A DNA stretch of 62,495 bases, the filler included, from Dirinaria sp. TL-2023a (taxonomy: Eukaryota), in assembly GCA_051941275.1 (NCBI GenBank). It is 11 parts of 11 records of this genome, joined end to end, with 100 filler letters (N's around TTAATTAATTAA, not from the genome) between each part and the next. Parts side by side here need not be neighbours in the genome. Positions count along the whole stretch, not along the records: positions 28,517 to 34,105 come from JAVEBF010001628.1; 10 more parts are not named here. The stretch is one strand, 5' to 3'. This document shows positions 25,401-42,492 of this stretch, in pieces (position 1 is the stretch's first letter; each line of letters opens with the position of its first letter). The translations under genes were made by a program, and so were the position numbers. The notes under the pieces are model-generated. The model ran no database searches, was not told where the DNA came from, and worked only from the letters and a program-made list of their open reading frames with translations.

Positions 25401-26484
25401 AAGAGAGGGTAGACTACGACATCGTTCTCTTTGAATAAGGCAATGTGCAGCCATCAAGCACTATTAGGATTTCATGATTTACTGGCTGCATTTAAGTGCA
25501 AATAGCAAGAAGCAGGCGCTGGATTTGAATCGACTGTTAAGTTGCAGCCTTCGATATTAACCTTCTGATCGAGGAAGTTGTTCTGGACCACTATGCAGTC
25601 ATTGCCAGAGGTCGTAGATTTGACTCTGCTAACACTGCTGCAAAGAGATTAAGGGCAATTTCTATCGAGAAGACGCAGATAATACGCTGTTGAAAGGAAT
25701 CTGGACCAAAAACCCTCGTTCAGATTACTCTATCACAAGGAGAAATGTACAATGACGCGGCGTGATTGGTCATAGCTGCGAGCCTGGACATACACCTTCT
25801 GCCGCTCAGAACCCCCTGAAGCAATGTTGAAAGACTTGACTTAGGTTTCTCCGAGGTTGCTTCGATCAGACTAGGTCCCTCGGTCCTAGGATGCCGCACC
25901 TAAACCTCGAAAAGTATAGGTTCATCCGACTCACAGCTTTGGCGGTCTGGAAACCCCCATGGACGCAGCCGCATGACGAAGAAATAGAGTTGCAAGGGCT
26001 ATTTCTGGTCCCAGAATATCAGCCAGGACGATACTGTGACACTTTCTCGCATCAAGGAAATCGGACTATTCCCCAAACGGAATATGCACTTCTTGGCGCC
26101 GCAGATCAAGCATCTAGAAAAGTGTCTTTGCTTTGGATGAACAGCAGGGAAGCCACGGATGGCATGAATCTTGTATTACTAATCGCACAAAATATAACAG
26201 ACTTTCAGTAGTCTACGAGCATGTCTCTAGATTACGCAATCATCGTTCCATTTCCATACGCAAAGAACCCCGCTGGTAGCTTTGATCCCATCGAAATCGA
26301 CTAAATGGTGATAGTGTCCTACCACTGACATAAGGTAGTTCGTCGTTGTGTCTTGGTCTTGGAGCTTCACATATAAAACGTTGGAAGAAGACGCAATATC
26401 TCGTCTTCAGACCATAGTCAGCCTCAAAACACGGATCCACAAATCTCTATACCTCCTTGTACAAAAGAGATTCACTTAAGCACC

Positions 26485-27366
26485 ATGTCTTGCCATCCCA
26501 CCACATATCACAATGTGACAGTATCAGACGGTACCAACGTCGCCTATGCAGAAGCCGGGTCTCCATCTCTACCTCTGCTGCTTCTTCTACACGGCTTCCC
26601 CTCATCCAATAACCAATACCGCAATTTCATCCCCCTCCTCGCTCCAACCCACCACGTTATCGCCCCTGACTTGCCGGGTTTCGGCCTCACCACCACACCG
26701 GCCAATTACACATTCACATTCGCCAATCTCGCGTCGACGATCGGGCTCTTCCTCTCCGCGCTCAACATCACGCGGTACGCGGTGTACATCTTCGACTACG
26801 GCGCGCCGGTCGGCTTACGACTGGCACTCAAATCCCCGGACGCAATCACGGCGATCGTGTCGCAGAACGGCAACGCCTACAACGAAGGCTTCGGGCACCC
26901 GTTCTGGGACCCTATCATGGCACTGTGGGAGAACGACACGGCCGCCAACCGCGCCGTGCTCCGGGACAACGCGCTGACGCTCGACTTCACGAAACTGCAA
27001 TACACGGCCGGCGTGCCCGCTGAGGATCTCCCGCTCATCGATCCCGTGACCTACACCTACGATTACCTCCAGAACATCCAAACCCCAGCGAAACAAGAAA
27101 TCCAGTTAAGCCTGCTGTACGATTACCGCACCAACGTCGATTTGTATCCGGCGTTCCACACGTATTTCCGCGACACGCAGGTCCCGCTGTTTGCGATCTG
27201 GGGGAAGGGGGATCCGGCGTTCATCCCGCCCGGGGCGGAGGCGTTCAAGACGGATTTGCCGGGGGCGAAGATCGAGTTTGTGGATTCGGGCCATTTCGCG
27301 CTGGAGACGAAGGGGGAGGAGATTGCGGGGAAGGTGAAGCGGTTTCTGAAGGCGGTGGGGCATTGA
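26485..27366 (+). CDS. Alpha/beta-fold hydrolase (epoxide hydrolase / haloalkane dehalogenase-like), intronless
   Basis: LLHGFP oxyanion motif, APDLPGFG, nucleophile FDYGAP, WGKGD, catalytic His GHFALE. Confidence 0.9.
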   Translation: MSCHPTTYHNVTVSDGTNVAYAEAGSPSLPLLLLLHGFPSSNNQYRNFIPLLAPTHHVIAPDLPGFGLTTTPANYTFTFANLASTIGLFLSALNITRYAVYIFDYGAPVGLRLALKSPDAITAIVSQNGNAYNEGFGHPFWDPIMALWENDTAANRAVLRDNALTLDFTKLQYTAGVPAEDLPLIDPVTYTYDYLQNIQTPAKQEIQLSLLYDYRTNVDLYPAFHTYFRDTQVPLFAIWGKGDPAFIPPGAEAFKTDLPGAKIEFVDSGHFALETKGEEIAGKVKRFLKAVGH

Positions 27367-29665: not shown

Positions 29666-31325
29666 ATGGCGAAGACCAAGCTAAGTGGCAAAGACGCCGC
29701 GAAAGCCAGCAAAGATATTCAGGTTAAAGGAATCTCTTCGGTCAAAGAAGGTGCTGTGACTAAAATATCCCAGACTCCCAAAGCCAAGAGTAAGGAGCTA
29801 GCAAAGGAAGTCGCTACTAAAGCGGACAATAAGTCCAAGAAAGCGAAGAAGGAACCAACACCAGACACGAGCAGCGGATCCAGCGCGAGCAGCGACGAAG
29901 AGAGCAGCGCAAGTTCTTCCAGCAGTGACGAAGAACCTAAGGTGAAGACTGCAAAGCCGGGAAATCTAAATGGATTGAAGACCAATGGGGCAGCTAAAGC
30001 CTCTCTATTATCTAAGGGTGAAAGTTCTGCCTCTTCCGACTCATCTGAAGCCTCTGAATCCTCTGAGTCCTCCGAATCCTCAGGGTCTGACGCTTCTTCC
30101 GACGAGGAGGATGAGTCGCGTGTACTGCTGTCCGCTCCAGCAGCTAAAGCAGCAGAAGCTGCAGCAAAGGAAGAGTCATCTAGTGAAGAATATAGCGAAC
30201 AGAGCGACCTCGACGCGGAAACCGTTCCCGGCGCCGTCGACTCTAAGGCGCTGCAAAGCGAGCTGGCAAAGGTTGCGTCTAATGAGGCATATTTTCCCAG
30301 ACAGCTCCAATTGTCACGGTATGAACTGACTCTCTGGTAGGTCTCTTCAGGTGAGGAATCTGACAGCGAAGCGTCGTCGGCGTCTTCGTCCGATGAATCC
30401 GACAGCGAAGAAGAAAAGGAGGCTCAGGTCCCTGCGCCTAGAAAACGCAAGGCTGAAGCCGAAGAATCTTCTACCTCCGCCAAGAAAACGAGCGCTGAAG
30501 GCGATCAATCTGGTAATCTGTTCGTCGGCAATCTGTCCTGGAACGTGGACGAAGAATGGCTCAAATCAGAGTTTGAGAAGTTTGGAGAACTGTTAAGCTT
30601 GCGCATTGTGACCGACAAGGACACTGGGCGCTCTAGAGGGTAAGCCAGGGCTGCCACAACTACAGCTTCTGTTTCTCTGAAACTAAAATATTGACAGTTT
30701 TGGCTATGTTGACTTCGTGAACCCGGAAGACGCTGCCAAAGCTTTGCAAGAGATGAATGGCCAACAAATTGATGGCCGCCGACTGAACGTCGACACCGCC
30801 GCCAAGCGTTCCGAAGGTGCCGAAAATTCCAACAAGCGCCAAAAAACTTTCGGAGACAGTCAGAGCGAACCCAGCGAGACCCTCTTCGTCGCCAATATTG
30901 CGTTCGACGCCGATGAAGACATGATTGGCCAAGCTTTTGGTGAGCACGGCACGGTCACCGCCGTCCGCTTACCCAAGGATATAGAGACGGACCGGCCCAA
31001 GGGATACGGGTATGTTCAGTTCGCTTCAGTCAGCGAAGCTACGGCGGCCTTAGAGGCGATGAAGGGTGCTGCTATCGGCGGTCGCCCTGTTCGCCTTGAT
31101 TTTGCTTCAAGCAAACCCAACCGCGACTCCATTGGTGGAGGGCGTGGAGGCTTCCGAGGAGGCCGAGGCGGACGAGGCCGAGGATTCGATCGTGGAGGGC
31201 GCGGAGGAGGTCGTGGTCGAGGAGGATTCGATCGTGGTGGACGCGGTGGTGGACGCGGAGGTCGCGGGGGCTCTACCAATCGCGGCGGCTTCGGTGACTT
31301 CCAAGGCAAGAAGATGACCTTCTGA
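29666..31325 (+). CDS. NSR1: Nucleolin (Nsr1/gar2): acidic Ser-rich N-terminus, two RRMs, RGG tail; introns ~30271-30340 and 30640-30697
   Basis: LFVGNLSWNVDEEWL / RSRG|FGYVDF RRM1, LFVANIAF / KGYGYVQF RRM2, RGG repeats, C-terminus FQGKKMTF. Confidence 0.92.
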
Positions 31326-32295: not shown

Positions 32296-33682
32296 ATGCC
32301 GTCCCTAAATTCCAATCTCTCCGCTGGAGCGCGAGACCGTCCGGGCCCTCGTGGACAGTACCAGGCGCACCACGCACCGGAAGTCATTCGATCAACGTCT
32401 GGAGTCAGAAGGTTACGATCAGACGGTAAGTCATCCTGTATCTAGCAAGAAAGCTATCGATCCGTCTACTCCTGCTTCCCGATCCATTTCCACCTGCATA
32501 CAAGCCACACCGATCAACCCCGCAGACATGGATAGCATATACTCATTCGCTTGGTACGCAGAATCTTGGATCGAAGTATCTTCGCGTCCCTCTTCATCCT
32601 CCCTTTCATCTGCAGCGACGGATGACGTTGTACCCTCTGCGTTCCGGGCCCTACACGATCAACGTAGGCGGCCTCGCTTAAACAGGACTGTATCACTTCC
32701 ATCAGGAACGCAAGTTCGATCGACGAGTGCGACTGGCAGTAGCCAGGAAGAGTATGAAGAAAGCGAAAGCGAGTCAGACCGCATCATGACCAGCTCGAAC
32801 GAAGCCCTCGAGCAACACTCCTCAGAAGGCGTCAGCCCGTCCGCACAGGTCTCTTCTGCATCCGAACGTGGGGACGACCAAGACGACGACGACGACGAGA
32901 ACGCGACTGCCCTAGGCGTTGCCACCGTCGAGCCAGCTTTCACCCCTCAGCCGAACGCTTTCTCTCACCCGCCGCGATCGCCACGGCATACTCACTCAGC
33001 AGAGACCAGAACATCATATTTCTCCCCCACACCTCGAACGACGCCAAGCCGACGCACCGCCCGCTCCTACCCAACACAGAGAAGCCGCTCACACACACCG
33101 TACAACGTCATCTCTCCATCCCACCAAGCTGACCATGACGCTGCTCTCCGAGCAAGCCTCTCCACACTTCTTTCGTGCGCCGCTGCAGCACGTGGCCTAC
33201 CTAAACGAGAGCAGGCACCAGTACTGCCTCCCCGCCCTGCTGCTGCCCCAGCAAACAGAGTCGAACCAAGCACCTTACGAATAGTACCCGAATCCGTAGT
33301 CATGGGGGAGACGCCAGAACCTCCTCGGCCAAGCGCCCGCAAGCGGTCCGCAAGCGGATCGAGAGGCGCCTCAGGCAGCGAGAAAGGCAAGCGGAAAGCA
33401 TCAACCTCCCGCAACCGGCGAGAAGCGCGGAAGAAGCAGAAAGCGAGCATCGAGGACTTGAACATCTCCCCCACGCTGATGACGTGGGTGGTCAGCGCCG
33501 GGGTGGTGGTGCTGTTCAGCGCGATCAGCTTTTCAGCGGGGTACGTCGTCGGCCGGGAGGTGGGGCGCATGGAGGCTGCTTCTGCTGCGACGGGCAACCA
33601 GGGCGTGGTGTGCTCGAAGGAGGTGGGCCGGGGTTTGAGGAAGTTGAGGTGGGGAACCAGCTCCACTGTCATCCGCGTATGA
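32296..33682 (+). CDS. Tail-anchored disordered protein with an N-terminal AIM/LIR-like motif (candidate selective-autophagy receptor); intron 32426-32561
   Basis: ATG 32296; GTAAGT..CAG splice keeps frame (SD|ESWIEVSSRPSSSS); C-terminal TM TLMTWVVSAGVVVLFSAISFSAGYVVG followed by a basic tail. Confidence 0.7.
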
Positions 33683-34105
33683 AGAGGAAGTATTGTTAGT
33701 AATGAGAGCGGGAGATTTCGATTAGGGATGTTTTTTTTTTTGTTTCATGCATTTGGGAGGGGGACTAGATGAGAGACTACCTTACTTTATGATGGTGGGT
33801 TGCTAGAGATGTGTGTGTATGGCATATTTTTGACTGGGGCGTATTTTTGAGAAATTGGGGGGAATGAATGGAGAAGATCTTGCTACTTCACTCTCTTTGC
33901 CACTTGGGCTTGGGCTTCGGTATCCTAACCCCCCCTTTTTTTAAAAAAAAAAAAAAAAAAAATTCATAAAAAGAATATCATCTATCTGCACACATCTACC
34001 TCTCCCTCTTCTCTCTCCTTCTTCTAATATCTCCCCCCAAAAAACAAAAAAAGGATATATCTCCTTTCCTCCCGCACGCCTCGACTTCCATCCTCTTCCA
34101 TTCCG

Positions 34106-34205
34106 NNNNNNNNNNNNNNNNNNNNNNNNNNNNNNNNNNNNNNNNNNNNTTAATTAATTAANNNNNNNNNNNNNNNNNNNNNNNNNNNNNNNNNNNNNNN
34201 NNNNN
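34106..34205. other. Artificial contig linker
   Basis: N44-TTAATTAATTAA-N44. Confidence 0.98.
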
Positions 34206-34870
34206 TCGCACCATGTAGCACCTATAGCTTTAAACATATCCTTGCAGCCGCGTTCTCTCGGCCCTCCGGTGCAAGGATTCTGCAGTGTCGGGCTAGCTGG
34301 TCTTTTTCTCGACGGAGGGTTTCCAAAAGAAAAGAAGTAGTTGTCAGGCGGTAAAGGCAATGCGGCACTGGTGGGGTGTTCTTTGAAGTAAGAAGCGAGG
34401 CAAGTGAGTTCGCCGCAGGAGCCTCCTTGACGATGGTCGGTAGGCCACTTGCCATCAGTTGCGGCAGTCTCTAAGATGGTTTTCACTTGTTGGGGTACAT
34501 TATCAAGGTGGTATCCGAAGTTGTTCGCTCCTGAACCGGTGGCAGATGAGCCGATGAAGAGTTTACCATCTTCAGGGATCCACATTACTGTCATCATTAG
34601 GGGGAGCTTGTGCTTCGGAACGAATTTTCCGCTGCGACGAATCTCCGGCAACTTCTTATAGATATTTTCCATCTCGCGGTATGCTTCGAGACCAACTTTC
34701 ATAGCTGTATTTTTGGGCAAGCGACGACCTTGATACTCATCAAAGTCGACTACGGCTGAATAATAGACGAATCCTCCCTTCGTGTCGACGAGTGCAACTT
34801 CAACTATAGCTGTAGCACAGGATATTAGGAACGCTATGAGGATGCAGAACGAATGGCTTTTAAGGTGCAT
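34206..34870 (-). CDS. Secreted protein with deaminase-like Zn motifs (CGE ... PC..C), 3'-truncated at the contig edge
   Basis: Signal peptide MHLKSHSFCILIAFLISCATA; PLMMTV..LFIGSS; HRQGGSCGE; NPCTGGPRERGC. Confidence 0.6.
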
Positions 34871-35294
34871 CTTGGTGGATTGCGCCGGTGGTAAAGCGTG
34901 AGAGTAATGATTGACTGTCAAACGTATTGAGTGTCGGGCTTGTCAGGAAATCCTCTACGGGACAGAAAAGTAACCTGCGGACGAAAACGAGAGAGAGAAA
35001 CCTGCGAGTGAGCGGTGGTGGGAAGCATGGAGAATTTGGTGATGCAGTACAATATATACTGAAGAAGCTTTCCATTTAAAGATCGAAAATTGCACATAGA
35101 TGCTGGAGTCCAAGAACATGATGTGCTGAGATGAAGATTGGACCACTGTGCCGTAATTGAATGATCGTTATGGTTCGAATAGTGCATAAATTTCCTGGAC
35201 TCGATGAACATGTATTTGCGTGTTGGGAGAAAGCAAATCACAGAGCAGGAAGAGTTGTATCAGTCGTATTAACAATGCCGATTCATTGCATGAT

Positions 35295-40903: not shown

Positions 40904-41747
40904 AGCACTTTTTGTTTTCAAGATTGTTTTCCCATGAAACTTTTAACAATGTGCATGCTTATTTTTGGTCGTAGTATCTACAGTTCAATTTGCAGTATTG
41001 ATTGAGACATCTTTTTCGGAACCCAACAACTACCTTACCTTACGAGAGTACTTTTGCCAACACTCTCTTCACCACTACCAATTTCCCAGAACCACGCCAT
41101 CTTCAAGCGCACCAGATGCAGTTCACATTTTAGCTGCTCCTCCACACATTATTCCCATCAAAGAAGTCGTTTTCGTAAGCAATAATAGCGAACGCGAAAA
41201 GGTTTCGACGGCAATTTTCGTCTTCGGGCGCACAGTACGAATGCAGCCACGGTACTAATACTGCCTTGTTTCCGGCCTTGCTCCCTCGACAAGGCAATTC
41301 GAAACGCAAAAAATATTGATTTACAGCTTACACATTCTCTCACACCATTTTGCATGAGCACACTATAATACGTCTCATGTTCAGGTAGTCCTACTGTTGC
41401 TAGGCGTAAGAGGTGCGATCTTCCTGCTTTCTGACTATCATCACCGCTGTTGAAAGCTTGCCCCCAGTCAGGAATCAGTGTGGCATCGCCATCCTTAGTT
41501 TATGGCATCATAAGGTAACGCTCATATCCCCTCATTAGGTAGTACCATACACCAGATCTAGACTTCCTAGATTTACTTTTCCCTTATCGCTTATCTCTCC
41601 AACTTCACGATCAAGTACATATTAGAATGCCGAGAATGCCCACACGATGATGCTCCCACAATACGTCATCGATAGTCCCCTTAACTTTTCCTATTATTAT
41701 AAACAGACAGAGGAGGATCAGTCACCGGAAATCCAACGACGCCAGCA

Positions 41748-42492
41748 ATGCTCACCCTAATCAGCGCCACACCTTCGCCCTACGCGCGCAAGAACCGCGT
41801 TGCCCTGCTTGAAAAGGGCATTCCCTTCCAGCTTCAGACCGAAATCCCATGGCACAGCGCGACGGAAACCCCGAAATATAACCCGCTCGAGAAACTTCCC
41901 ATCCTCATCTTCGACAACGGGGAGCCGCCCATCTACGAATCGTGGTTCATCCAGGAGTACATCATACAGAAATACCGATCCCAGGGTCCCAGCTTGCTTC
42001 CAGAGTCGCTCGATGAGCAGCTGCTTGCTAAGCAGATCCAGGTGATTGCCGATGGCGCATGTGATGCTATGGTGTGTTGTTCCTTGCGGTCGCTATACAA
42101 TCGACTGCTGTGGTGCCTGTATAATTATGGAGGATCATTGACCGGCGCGAGTGTAGGGCCTAGCCTTTTTCGAGACGGGCCGAGGGGAACGCAAGAGCGA
42201 AGAGTGGCTTTCAAGACAGCTACGAAAGATCTACGGCGCGATCAAGGCGGTCGACCAATTTGTGAAGAGGAGCGAGGGCGGAGAATTCTTAATTGGAAGG
42301 GAGCTGACGATTGCGGATATTGCGGTCGTTTCGATGCTAGGCTTGATGGATCTGGCCGAGAGGCAACTCCAGCTTGTTGCGTGGGAAGATGACTATCCGG
42401 AGCTGAGGGAGTATTGGCAGCGGTTGGAACAGAGGCCGAGTTTTAGGGAGACGCAACCGGTCATGTTTGAGTTGCAGGAGAAGGTTGCTTGA
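41748..42492 (+). CDS. Glutathione S-transferase family protein; intron ~42072-42156
   Basis: SATPSPYARK, NPLEKLPIL, IYESWFIQEY N-domain; FLIGRELTIADIA and RPSFRET C-domain. Confidence 0.88.

Follow-up and report, generated by a model that had tools for sequence, protein, structure and literature searches.

Dual Atg8- and Atg11-binding-like motifs mark a conserved membrane protein of Dirinaria and other Pezizomycotina as a candidate selective-autophagy receptor

We have analyzed a gene of Dirinaria sp. TL-2023a (assembly GCA_051941275.1) that lies on the plus strand at 32296..33682 of a 62,495-nucleotide stretch of DNA, hereafter called the window, in which 11 parts of this genome are joined by filler letters. 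Its predicted product is a 416-residue protein with a single transmembrane (TM) segment near the C-terminus, which belongs to a conserved family of Pezizomycotina and combines two separate motifs resembling those of organelle-resident autophagy receptors, namely an invariant Trp motif of the Atg8-interacting (AIM) type and a downstream acidic and Ser-rich block akin to the regions that bind the scaffold protein Atg11. On this basis we propose that the protein could be a membrane-anchored receptor for selective autophagy of some organelle, of the same functional type as Atg32, Atg43 and BNIP3/NIX yet not homologous to them, a reading for which we consider the chances evenly balanced. The presence of the second, Atg11-type block in the sequence strengthens this reading. 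The features of the gene are as follows, in window coordinates.

32296..33682, plus strand: whole gene; two exons, ATG at 32296, TGA stop at 33680-33682
32296..32425, plus strand: exon 1; ATG start, 43 codons and the first base of codon 44 (RNA contigs, translation)
32426..32561, plus strand: intron; 136 nt, GT..AG; RNA-contig joint 32424->32561, reported as 'skips 136, GT..AG (cut +1)'
32562..33682, plus strand: exon 2; open frame through the TGA stop
32567..32578, plus strand: candidate AIM core W46-I-E-V49, preceded by D43-E44-S45 across the splice junction
32579..32611, plus strand: Ser run SSRPSSSSLSS, directly after the W motif
32738..32803, plus strand: acidic/Ser cluster with hydrophobic pair, SSQEEYEESESESDRIMTSSNE; candidate Atg11-binding region
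32873..32902, plus strand: Asp-rich run DDQDDDDDEN ahead of the conserved N-x-T-A-L-G (DDDDEN.TALG block)
32939..32974, plus strand: conserved linear motif FTPQPNAFSHPP (conservation among 106 sequences)
33128..33205, plus strand: helix block ADHDAALRASLSTLLSCAAAARGLPK, the sole confidently predicted helix of the presumed cytosolic part (AlphaFold2 helix 201-220, conservation)
33383..33442, plus strand: basic cluster KGKRKASTSRNRREARKKQK just before the TM segment; K288 and R289 at least 90% conserved
33479..33550, plus strand: predicted single TM segment, rich in Gly, Ala and Ser, SAGVVVLFSAISFSAG (AlphaFold2 helix 315-354, hydrophobicity)
33551..33679, plus strand: C-terminal tail, about 43-44 residues past the TM segment, with conserved G-L-R-[RK]-L-R-W-G

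The candidate Atg8-interacting motif

The element that best defines the family is the motif around the Trp at residue 46 of 416. The pattern W-[ILVM]-[DEQ]-[ILVM], with [DE]-S before it and a Ser run after it, is present in 116 of the 116 representatives that cover the N-terminal block, which span at least five classes of Pezizomycotina; these are the sequences that reach position 14 or earlier of a rebuilt profile among the best 150 of 275 matches, on which the motif counts in representatives and the taxonomy from the profile search rest. The remaining 34 of the 150 are N-terminally truncated models, none of which has the W motif. Its commonest forms are ESWVEI (21), DSWIEI (14) and DSWIEV (14), and the Trp is invariant in three family alignments. 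Where models are spliced (n=62), the upstream context reads R-x-R-[SN]-[DE]-[DE]-S-W, and in the correctly spliced relative P0085 the Trp is also residue 46. The Ser run is hardly less constant, since columns S19, P21-S25, S27 and S28 reach 90% conservation or more in an alignment of 106 sequences, comprising 105 full-length representatives and the protein of this locus, which underlies the conservation values given below unless another set is named.

The core of LC3-interacting regions (LIR) and AIM consists of an aromatic residue, any two residues and L, I or V; acidic or phosphorylated residues at positions -1 and -2 strengthen binding, and about a quarter of LIRs carry Ser or Thr at -1 (PMC7615515). 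The same source lists BNIP3 (Ser17 at -1 and Ser24 at +6), NIX and FUNDC1 as organelle-resident receptors that are activated by such phosphorylation, gives the LIRs of BNIP3 and NIX as ...GSWVELHF... and ...SSWVELPM..., and describes a consensus for interaction with FIP200/Atg11 (FIR), [DEST][DEST][FWYILV]xx[ILV], and mentions optineurin as an example of a motif that is both LIR and FIR (PMC7615515). Judged by its residues, E-S-W-I-E-V fits both the LIR core with its flanks and the FIR consensus, and it resembles the LIRs of BNIP3, NIX and OPTN as listed there (PMC7615515). By analogy with Ser24 of BNIP3 at +6, the residues of the Ser run could be phosphorylation sites that tune the binding (PMC7615515).

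The original prediction, which was made from the DNA sequence alone, had located the gene at exactly these coordinates and had read D-E-S-W-I-E-V followed by a Ser run; both gene and motif are borne out to the base by the start codon, the TGA stop and an RNA-supported splice, and SSRPSSSSLSS does follow directly. Its reading of the motif as an AIM agrees with the published core and flank rules in PMC7615515, and the conservation across orthologues of SW[IV]E[IVL] that it had proposed to check is what the 116 representatives display. The motif was also called N-terminal, which holds in that it lies near the N-terminus, though at W46 it is not at the end of the protein. In a complex prediction of Atg8 with residues 26-85 of P0085, the scores of 0.19 and 0.18 stayed below the mark of 0.34; run without controls, the prediction weighs neither way (the Atg8 used was of fungal type, from metatranscriptome contig L020:288-650, with PF02991 at E 2.7e-51).

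A second motif resembling Atg11-binding regions

At a median distance of 74 residues after the Trp, 94 of the 150 representatives carry a block of the form Q[ED][ED]Y[ED][ED]S, and in 79 of these 94 it is followed by [ILVM][ILVM][STGN]SS, the endings among those 79 including VMTSS (27), VLSSS (16), VLTSS (10) and ILSSS (1). An Atg11-binding consensus D/SILSSS, with a regulatory phospho-Ser inside it, is common to Atg32, Atg36, PpAtg30 and Atg19 (as quoted in PMC4195827), and FIRs have been described as clusters of acidic or Ser/Thr residues adjoining two hydrophobic residues (PMC10940145). Compared with these descriptions, S-E-S-E-S-D-R-I-M-T-S-S looks closely like an FIR, and the sequences of some members match D/SILSSS exactly. 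By analogy with the known receptors, we infer that the block contains phosphorylation sites of CK2 or Hrr25 type.

In the member P0436 from Pyricularia grisea, W motif, helix, TM segment and tail are all retained, next to a long and different N-terminal extension.

Gene model and transcript evidence

The coding sequence, 32296..32425 joined to 32562..33682, follows from RNA contigs and translation. The contigs come from a single study, in which one lichen metatranscriptome sample is represented by four runs, and they derive from a close relative with about 3-4% base differences. The splice joint is present in all four runs, and one contig runs unbroken from 32561 to 33900, leaving exon 2 without any further intron. 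From the joint 32424->32561 (cut +1) it follows that the intron spans 32426..32561, and thus that codon 44, split as g|aa, encodes Glu44 directly after ...R-S-D, which yields D-E-S-W-I-E-V. This sequence exists solely in the spliced product, the unspliced open reading frame (ORF) having ...Y-A-E-S-W-I-E-V in its place. The product of exon 1 reads MPSLNS...GVRRLRSD, and its basic end R-R-L-R-S-D is kept in correctly spliced relatives as R-x-R-[SN]-[DE] before [DE]-S-W. The gene is therefore expressed as spliced RNA in a close relative.

The long open frame extends over 32309..33682, and its first ATG, at 32528, gives a product of 384 residues (P0001), the numbering of which plus 32 equals the full-length numbering. 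This ATG is a false start inside the intron (MDSIYSFAWYA...) that is also used by many automatic models of relatives. The recurrent annotation error in the family thus removes exon 1 and changes the residues flanking the W motif. Many family models are wrong at the 5' end, either starting in the intron or reading through it (P0049, P0060, P0120), and other faulty models begin at the Met of ...D-R-I-M-T-S-S.

The last 34 bases of the intron (32528-32561) encode the in-frame, ATG-started extension MDSIYSFAWYA, the residues of which are unusually conserved among 23 Lecanoromycete ORF calls, with Y5 and S6 invariant and M1 and F7 at least 90% conserved. This conservation may reflect branch-site or acceptor signals; alternatively, there could be an intron-retaining isoform with its start in the intron, which would keep the W motif and lose exon 1. 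The RNA contigs show the spliced form only, and contigs drop rare variants. An antisense ORF at 33067..33744 was rejected as a gene, for all homology and the splice direction favour the plus strand.

Protein layout and membrane anchor

The structure predicted by AlphaFold2 with the 106-sequence alignment has a mean predicted local distance difference test score (pLDDT) of 54.9 and only three helices, at 201-220, 255-258 (short) and 315-354 (long) in P0001 numbering, the rest being low-confidence coil. Serine makes up 16.6% of the exon-2 product. Residues 61-130 of P0001 have a net charge of -16 and a pLDDT mostly below 50. The translation of exon 1 contains no hydrophobic, signal-like stretch at the N-terminus, from which, together with the overall layout, the motif-bearing N-terminal part is modelled as cytosolic and the protein as crossing the membrane once.

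Beyond the two motifs already discussed, the linear motif FTPQPNAFSHPP has an invariant P140, with F138, P142, N143, F145 and P148 at least 90% conserved. The helix block ADHDAALRASLSTLLSCAAAARGLPK comes second to the W motif in conservation, with R208 invariant and 16 further columns at least 90% conserved; helix 201-220 spans DHDAALRASLSTLLSCAAAARG, with block pLDDT values of 78 and 70 and a low hydrophobic moment of 0.15. The helix likely serves partner binding or self-association.

The 35 residues preceding the TM segment have a net charge of +7. Within helix 315-354, for which block pLDDT rises up to 90, the most hydrophobic 20 residues are VVSAGVVVLFSAISFSAGYV, with a mean Kyte-Doolittle value of 1.96 compared with a family median of 2.08. 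The conserved residues of this helix are W320, A324, G325, F335, A337 and G338, among which the small ones (A324, G325, A337 and G338) are at least 90% conserved. The tail of 44 residues has a net charge of +5, and its segment CSKEVGRGLRKLRWGTSS a hydrophobic moment of 0.50. The layout that the original prediction had sketched, with a long acidic disordered region, one helix-like segment, a single C-terminal TM segment rich in small residues and a basic tail, is thus recovered in each of its parts.

Family and distribution

Of 8000 proteins scored in a word-indexed search, 1853 had E<=1e-3, the nearest named relatives being lichen-forming Lecanoromycetes. A profile search of 1.84 billion cluster representatives gave 275 matches at E<=1e-3, of which 249 reached E<=1e-10 and 190 reached E<=1e-30. 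Full-length matches show 60-80% identity in lichen fungi and 37-60% across classes, with the conserved blocks in the same order. All the named members that we examined are Pezizomycotina, from at least five classes, and are annotated as 'hypothetical' or 'uncharacterized', save for some automatic labels such as 'REJ domain-containing protein'. They include Agyrium, Sarea, Sclerophora, Cirrosporium, Claussenomyces, Phaeomoniella, Blastomyces, Aspergillus fumigatus, A. lentulus, A. fischeri, Venturia, Phyllosticta, Glutinoglossum, Botrytis, Chlorociboria, Chaetomium, Thermochaetoides, Neurospora, Sordaria, Podospora, Colletotrichum, Diaporthe, Ophiostoma, Magnaporthiopsis, Gaeumannomyces and Pyricularia (P0436, P0449); the locus tags of the family include CTHT_0060170, NFIA_069430 and MAPG_03193.

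Conservation is confined to short blocks, between which the disordered sequence has a column identity of about 0.1-0.3. The first block is [DE]-S-W-[IV]-E-[IV]-S-S-Q-P-S-S-S-S-L-S-S..D-E-I-V-T-T-G-L-R followed by an Arg run. Further blocks are S-S-Q-E-E-Y-E-E-S-E-S-E-S-D-R-V-M-T-S-S-N-E, D-D-D-D-E-N-x-T-A-L-G, F-T-P-Q-P-N-A-F-S-H-P-P, the helix block A-D-H-D-A-A-L-R-A-S-L-S-T-L-L-S-C-A-A-A-A-R-G-L-P-K, L-R-L-V-P-E-S, K-x-K-R-K, the TM segment and G-L-R-R-L-R-W-G.

No Pfam family was found for the protein in a scan at E<=10, which returned two chance-level matches, neither of them BNIP3, and 50 relatives compared with Pfam at E<=0.01 gave nothing consistent and no BNIP3. A sequence search of PDB returned a single chance match (E 3.3), and the ESM Atlas returned the family itself only, in unnamed ascomycete clusters.

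Published context and the probable Sordaria orthologue

The original prediction had stated that filamentous ascomycetes lack a clear Atg32 orthologue, and this agrees with the statement of Kueck and Stein (2021) that no Atg32 homologue was detected in filamentous euascomycetes (PMC8226480). Their motif screen of Sordaria macrospora, which looked for a C-terminal TM segment, a CK2 site, a PP2A docking site, a LIR, acidic clusters and an Atg11-binding region (A11BR), produced 27 candidates, six of them restricted to euascomycetes (PMC8226480). In the supplementary table, the row of SMAC_02823 lists the LIR SWVEI, the acidic clusters EED/DDD, the A11BR 'SSSS', a C-terminal TM segment and a CK2 site, and marks the protein as euascomycete-only (PMC8226480). 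The family member from Sordaria brevicollis, P0334, contains exactly one SWVEI in addition to EED and DDD clusters and an SSSS run; by these attributes, SMAC_02823 is probably the Sordaria macrospora orthologue. The receptor idea is hence not wholly new, for the probable orthologue was already listed in 2021, without follow-up. SMAC_04227, the candidate favoured in the screen, was considered as the same protein and rejected, given that its phosphosites extend up to S732 and it is much longer (PMC8226480). Full-text literature searches found no other paper naming SMAC_02823 or SMAC_04227.

The mitophagy factors of filamentous fungi treated in reviews of 2022 (PMC9980689) and 2026 (PMC13757524) are Atg24 and other non-anchored proteins. 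In Aspergillus oryzae, mitophagy and nucleophagy depend partly on Atg11, and this dependence implies a receptor; for nucleophagy a receptor has been inferred, without being identified (PMC11335778, which cites unpublished data). In Pyricularia, two-hybrid interactors of MoAtg8 comprise 32 loci, 14 of them 'hypothetical' (Table S1 of PMC10938464). MoAti1 was considered as a relative of the family and rejected, being a SUN-domain protein without a TM segment (PMC10938464).

Proposed mechanism

If the protein is a selective-autophagy receptor, its disordered N-terminal part would face the cytosol and its one TM segment, about 44 residues from the C-terminus, would hold it in the membrane of the organelle. 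D-E-S-W-I-E-V would then dock as a canonical AIM in the two hydrophobic pockets of Atg8, and thereby bind lipidated Atg8 on the growing phagophore, with Ser45 and the downstream Ser run acting as putative phospho-switches. A starvation or damage signal would lead kinases (of CK2 or Hrr25 type, by analogy) to phosphorylate Ser residues around W46 and in the acidic block; once phosphorylated, the cluster ending in D-R-I-M-T-S-S would recruit the scaffold Atg11 and with it the Atg1 complex. The W motif itself might recruit Atg11 too, given its fit to the FIP200/Atg11 consensus. Together, the two motifs would start and tether the phagophore on the membrane that carries the protein, while the conserved helix and the Gly/Ala/Ser-rich TM segment, through self-association or partner binding, could cluster the receptor. 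Topology, binding of Atg8 and Atg11, phospho-regulation and receptor function are all inferred from the features described above.

As to which organelle is concerned, the mitochondrial outer membrane is favoured, because of the moderately hydrophobic TM segment with basic flanks and of the receptor gap in filamentous ascomycetes; that the protein is specifically a mitophagy receptor is nevertheless a tentative and, taken alone, rather doubtful claim. Location in the endoplasmic reticulum (ER) or nuclear envelope ranks behind it, as do other membranes, and we regard that location as somewhat less likely again, even if the amphipathic basic tail and the Lys/Arg cluster would also suit such a protein.

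Broadest of all is the view that all filamentous ascomycetes have in this family their long-missing membrane-anchored organelle receptor, which would bind both Atg11 and Atg8 and would be a third, convergent invention beside Atg32 and Atg43 with a phospho-switched dual AIM/FIR motif; we hold this view to be improbable. Were it true, the family would control mitophagy or other whole-organelle turnover in lichens and moulds as well as in major pathogens of plants and humans. The interest of the question lies in the situation of filamentous ascomycetes, which have partly Atg11-dependent organelle autophagy yet no known anchored receptor, and in which the present family is conserved, expressed, unannotated and equipped with both receptor-type motifs on a membrane anchor. 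Its presence in Aspergillus, Neurospora, Sordaria, Podospora, Botrytis, Colletotrichum and Pyricularia makes the question testable in standard models, and even if the receptor reading is wrong, the family is among the better-conserved uncharacterised membrane proteins of Pezizomycotina.

Alternative explanations

Several points weigh against a receptor function. As a general rule, AIM calls made from the motif only often prove false, and another partner could be served by W-x-x-V in such an acidic and Ser-rich context. The searches of Pfam and PDB found no sequence relationship to any entry. Not every representative that has the acidic block also has the hydrophobic-SS ending (15 of the 94 do not), and in P0436 of Pyricularia grisea the block is degenerate and its D-R-V-M-T-S-S ending is lost, so that the Pyricularia lineage may have lost or relocated the putative element for Atg11 binding. 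The segment past the TM measures 40-99 residues in the family (median 52), which is longer than in classical tail-anchored proteins. Moreover, the RNA support comes from one study, with contigs of a relative and not of the same strain. The WoLF PSORT result listed for SMAC_02823 in the Sordaria screen is 'nucl 14, cyto 6, mito 3'; the authors of the screen preferred SMAC_04227 and report no experiments on SMAC_02823 in the account of the candidates (PMC8226480). Finally, searches by six locus tags of family members and by the motif strings found no published paper on any family member.

Among the other explanations for these data, the most credible, which we still consider unlikely, is that the protein is a membrane-anchored scaffold or signalling substrate outside autophagy, engaged in phosphatase or kinase docking or in contact tethering, the likeness to AIM and Atg11-binding sequences being coincidental. 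At least eight more conserved short blocks lie outside any autophagy model, including DDDDEN.TALG, FTPQPNAFSHPP, the helix, LRLVPES, K.KRK and GLRRLRWG; the Sordaria screen, moreover, chose its candidates partly by predicted CK2 sites and PP2A docking sites, and our searches with locus tags and motif strings found no published experimental link of the family to autophagy. However, coincidence would have to extend to two independent conserved motifs that stand on a membrane anchor in the same order and context as in Atg32-type receptors, and to a pattern of the kind that Atg8 pockets select, namely S at -1, the invariant W, [DE] at +2 and [IVL] at +3 (PMC7615515).

A receptor role may alternatively be retained and moved to the ER or nuclear envelope, with ER-phagy or nucleophagy of the Atg39 type and the basic amphipathic tail lying on the lumenal leaflet. 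The hydrophobic moment of the tail segment, the Lys/Arg cluster before the TM segment, the 'nucl 14' of WoLF PSORT for the probable Sordaria orthologue and the nucleophagy receptor inferred in Aspergillus oryzae (PMC11335778) are all in line with this possibility. Atg39, however, spans both nuclear membranes and has a lumenal region that extends to residue 398 with several amphipathic helices, compared with a tail of 40-99 residues here. The moderate hydrophobicity of the TM segment (family median 2.08), combined with basic residues on either side, is more usual for anchors of mitochondria or peroxisomes. The acidic block with its Tyr might instead be an FFAT-like sequence that binds VAP, which would also point to the ER. 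On balance we find the ER or nuclear-envelope receptor less probable than the scaffold. Least probable by far, in our estimate, is a protein that binds Atg8 without being a cargo receptor, either in a non-degradative role of Atg8 or merely as a regulated substrate of autophagy. It would agree with the AIM being the best-conserved element (116/116) and with the loss of the Atg11-like block in some lineages, but that block is kept in 79 of 94 representatives and is a hallmark of cargo receptors that initiate phagophores.

Other features of the window

Downstream of the gene, a minus-strand ORF at 34154-34942 (about 240-260 residues) has a hydrophobic, signal-peptide-like start, MHLKSHSFCILIAFLISCATA..., and no Pfam match; to judge from this start it may encode a secreted protein. 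Its C-terminal end is interrupted by an N run. Twenty runs of exactly 44 N occur between 5618 and 56923, in pairs every ~5.7 kb (e.g. 34106-34149 and 34162-34205); they look masking-like rather than like assembly gaps, and none lies inside the gene studied, whereas one pair cuts the 3' end of the neighbouring minus-strand ORF 34154-34870. Elsewhere in the window, the plus strand encodes an alpha/beta-hydrolase at 26377-27363 (PF00561, E 1.2e-28), a protein of the RRM type at 30687-31322, which has two stretches of RRM_1 (E 4.2e-29), and a glutathione S-transferase N-terminal domain at 41703-42389 (E 2.9e-12), none of which has an evident link to autophagy.

Comparison with known receptors

The original prediction had described the protein as BNIP3/NIX-like, which stands for architecture and LIR but not for homology, given that neither the protein nor 50 relatives match BNIP3 in Pfam. 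In both cases a W-type LIR, S-W-V-E-L in BNIP3/NIX and S-W-I-E-V here, has Ser at -1 and Glu at +2, lies in a disordered N-terminal part and is followed by Ser residues; both also have a single TM segment near the C-terminus that is rich in small residues, through which BNIP3 and NIX dimerise. Unlike them, the protein studied here is about twice as long, has a 44-residue tail past the TM segment, and adds the Atg11-binding-like block and many other conserved motifs, its named matches being restricted to Pezizomycotina.

The overall plan comes close to that of Atg32, which has, by the descriptions in PMC9980689 and PMC4195827, a cytosolic AIM, a CK2-regulated Atg11-binding region with Ser, a single TM segment and a C-terminal segment on the far side of the membrane, with the bulk of the protein facing the cytosol. 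The two are set apart by the above statement on Atg32 homologues in filamentous euascomycetes (PMC8226480) and by their dimensions: about 74 residues separate the motifs here, and the segment past the TM has 44 residues whereas that of Atg32 has 118. Atg39 likewise presents an AIM, an Atg11-binding region, a TM segment and a far-side segment in the same order (PMC8789198), but is described with the TM segment near the middle and a long lumenal region containing several amphipathic helices, whereas the far-side segment here is short. Atg43, described as a 27 kDa protein and, in the account of PMC9980689, without mention of an Atg11-binding region, differs in these respects from the present family. 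It shares with it, nonetheless, the nature of a lineage-restricted, AIM-bearing protein, in its case of the outer membrane, which has a single TM segment followed by only a short C-terminal stretch and is not homologous to Atg32 (PMC9980689), and by analogy it offers a precedent for the convergent origin of such receptors in separate fungal lineages.

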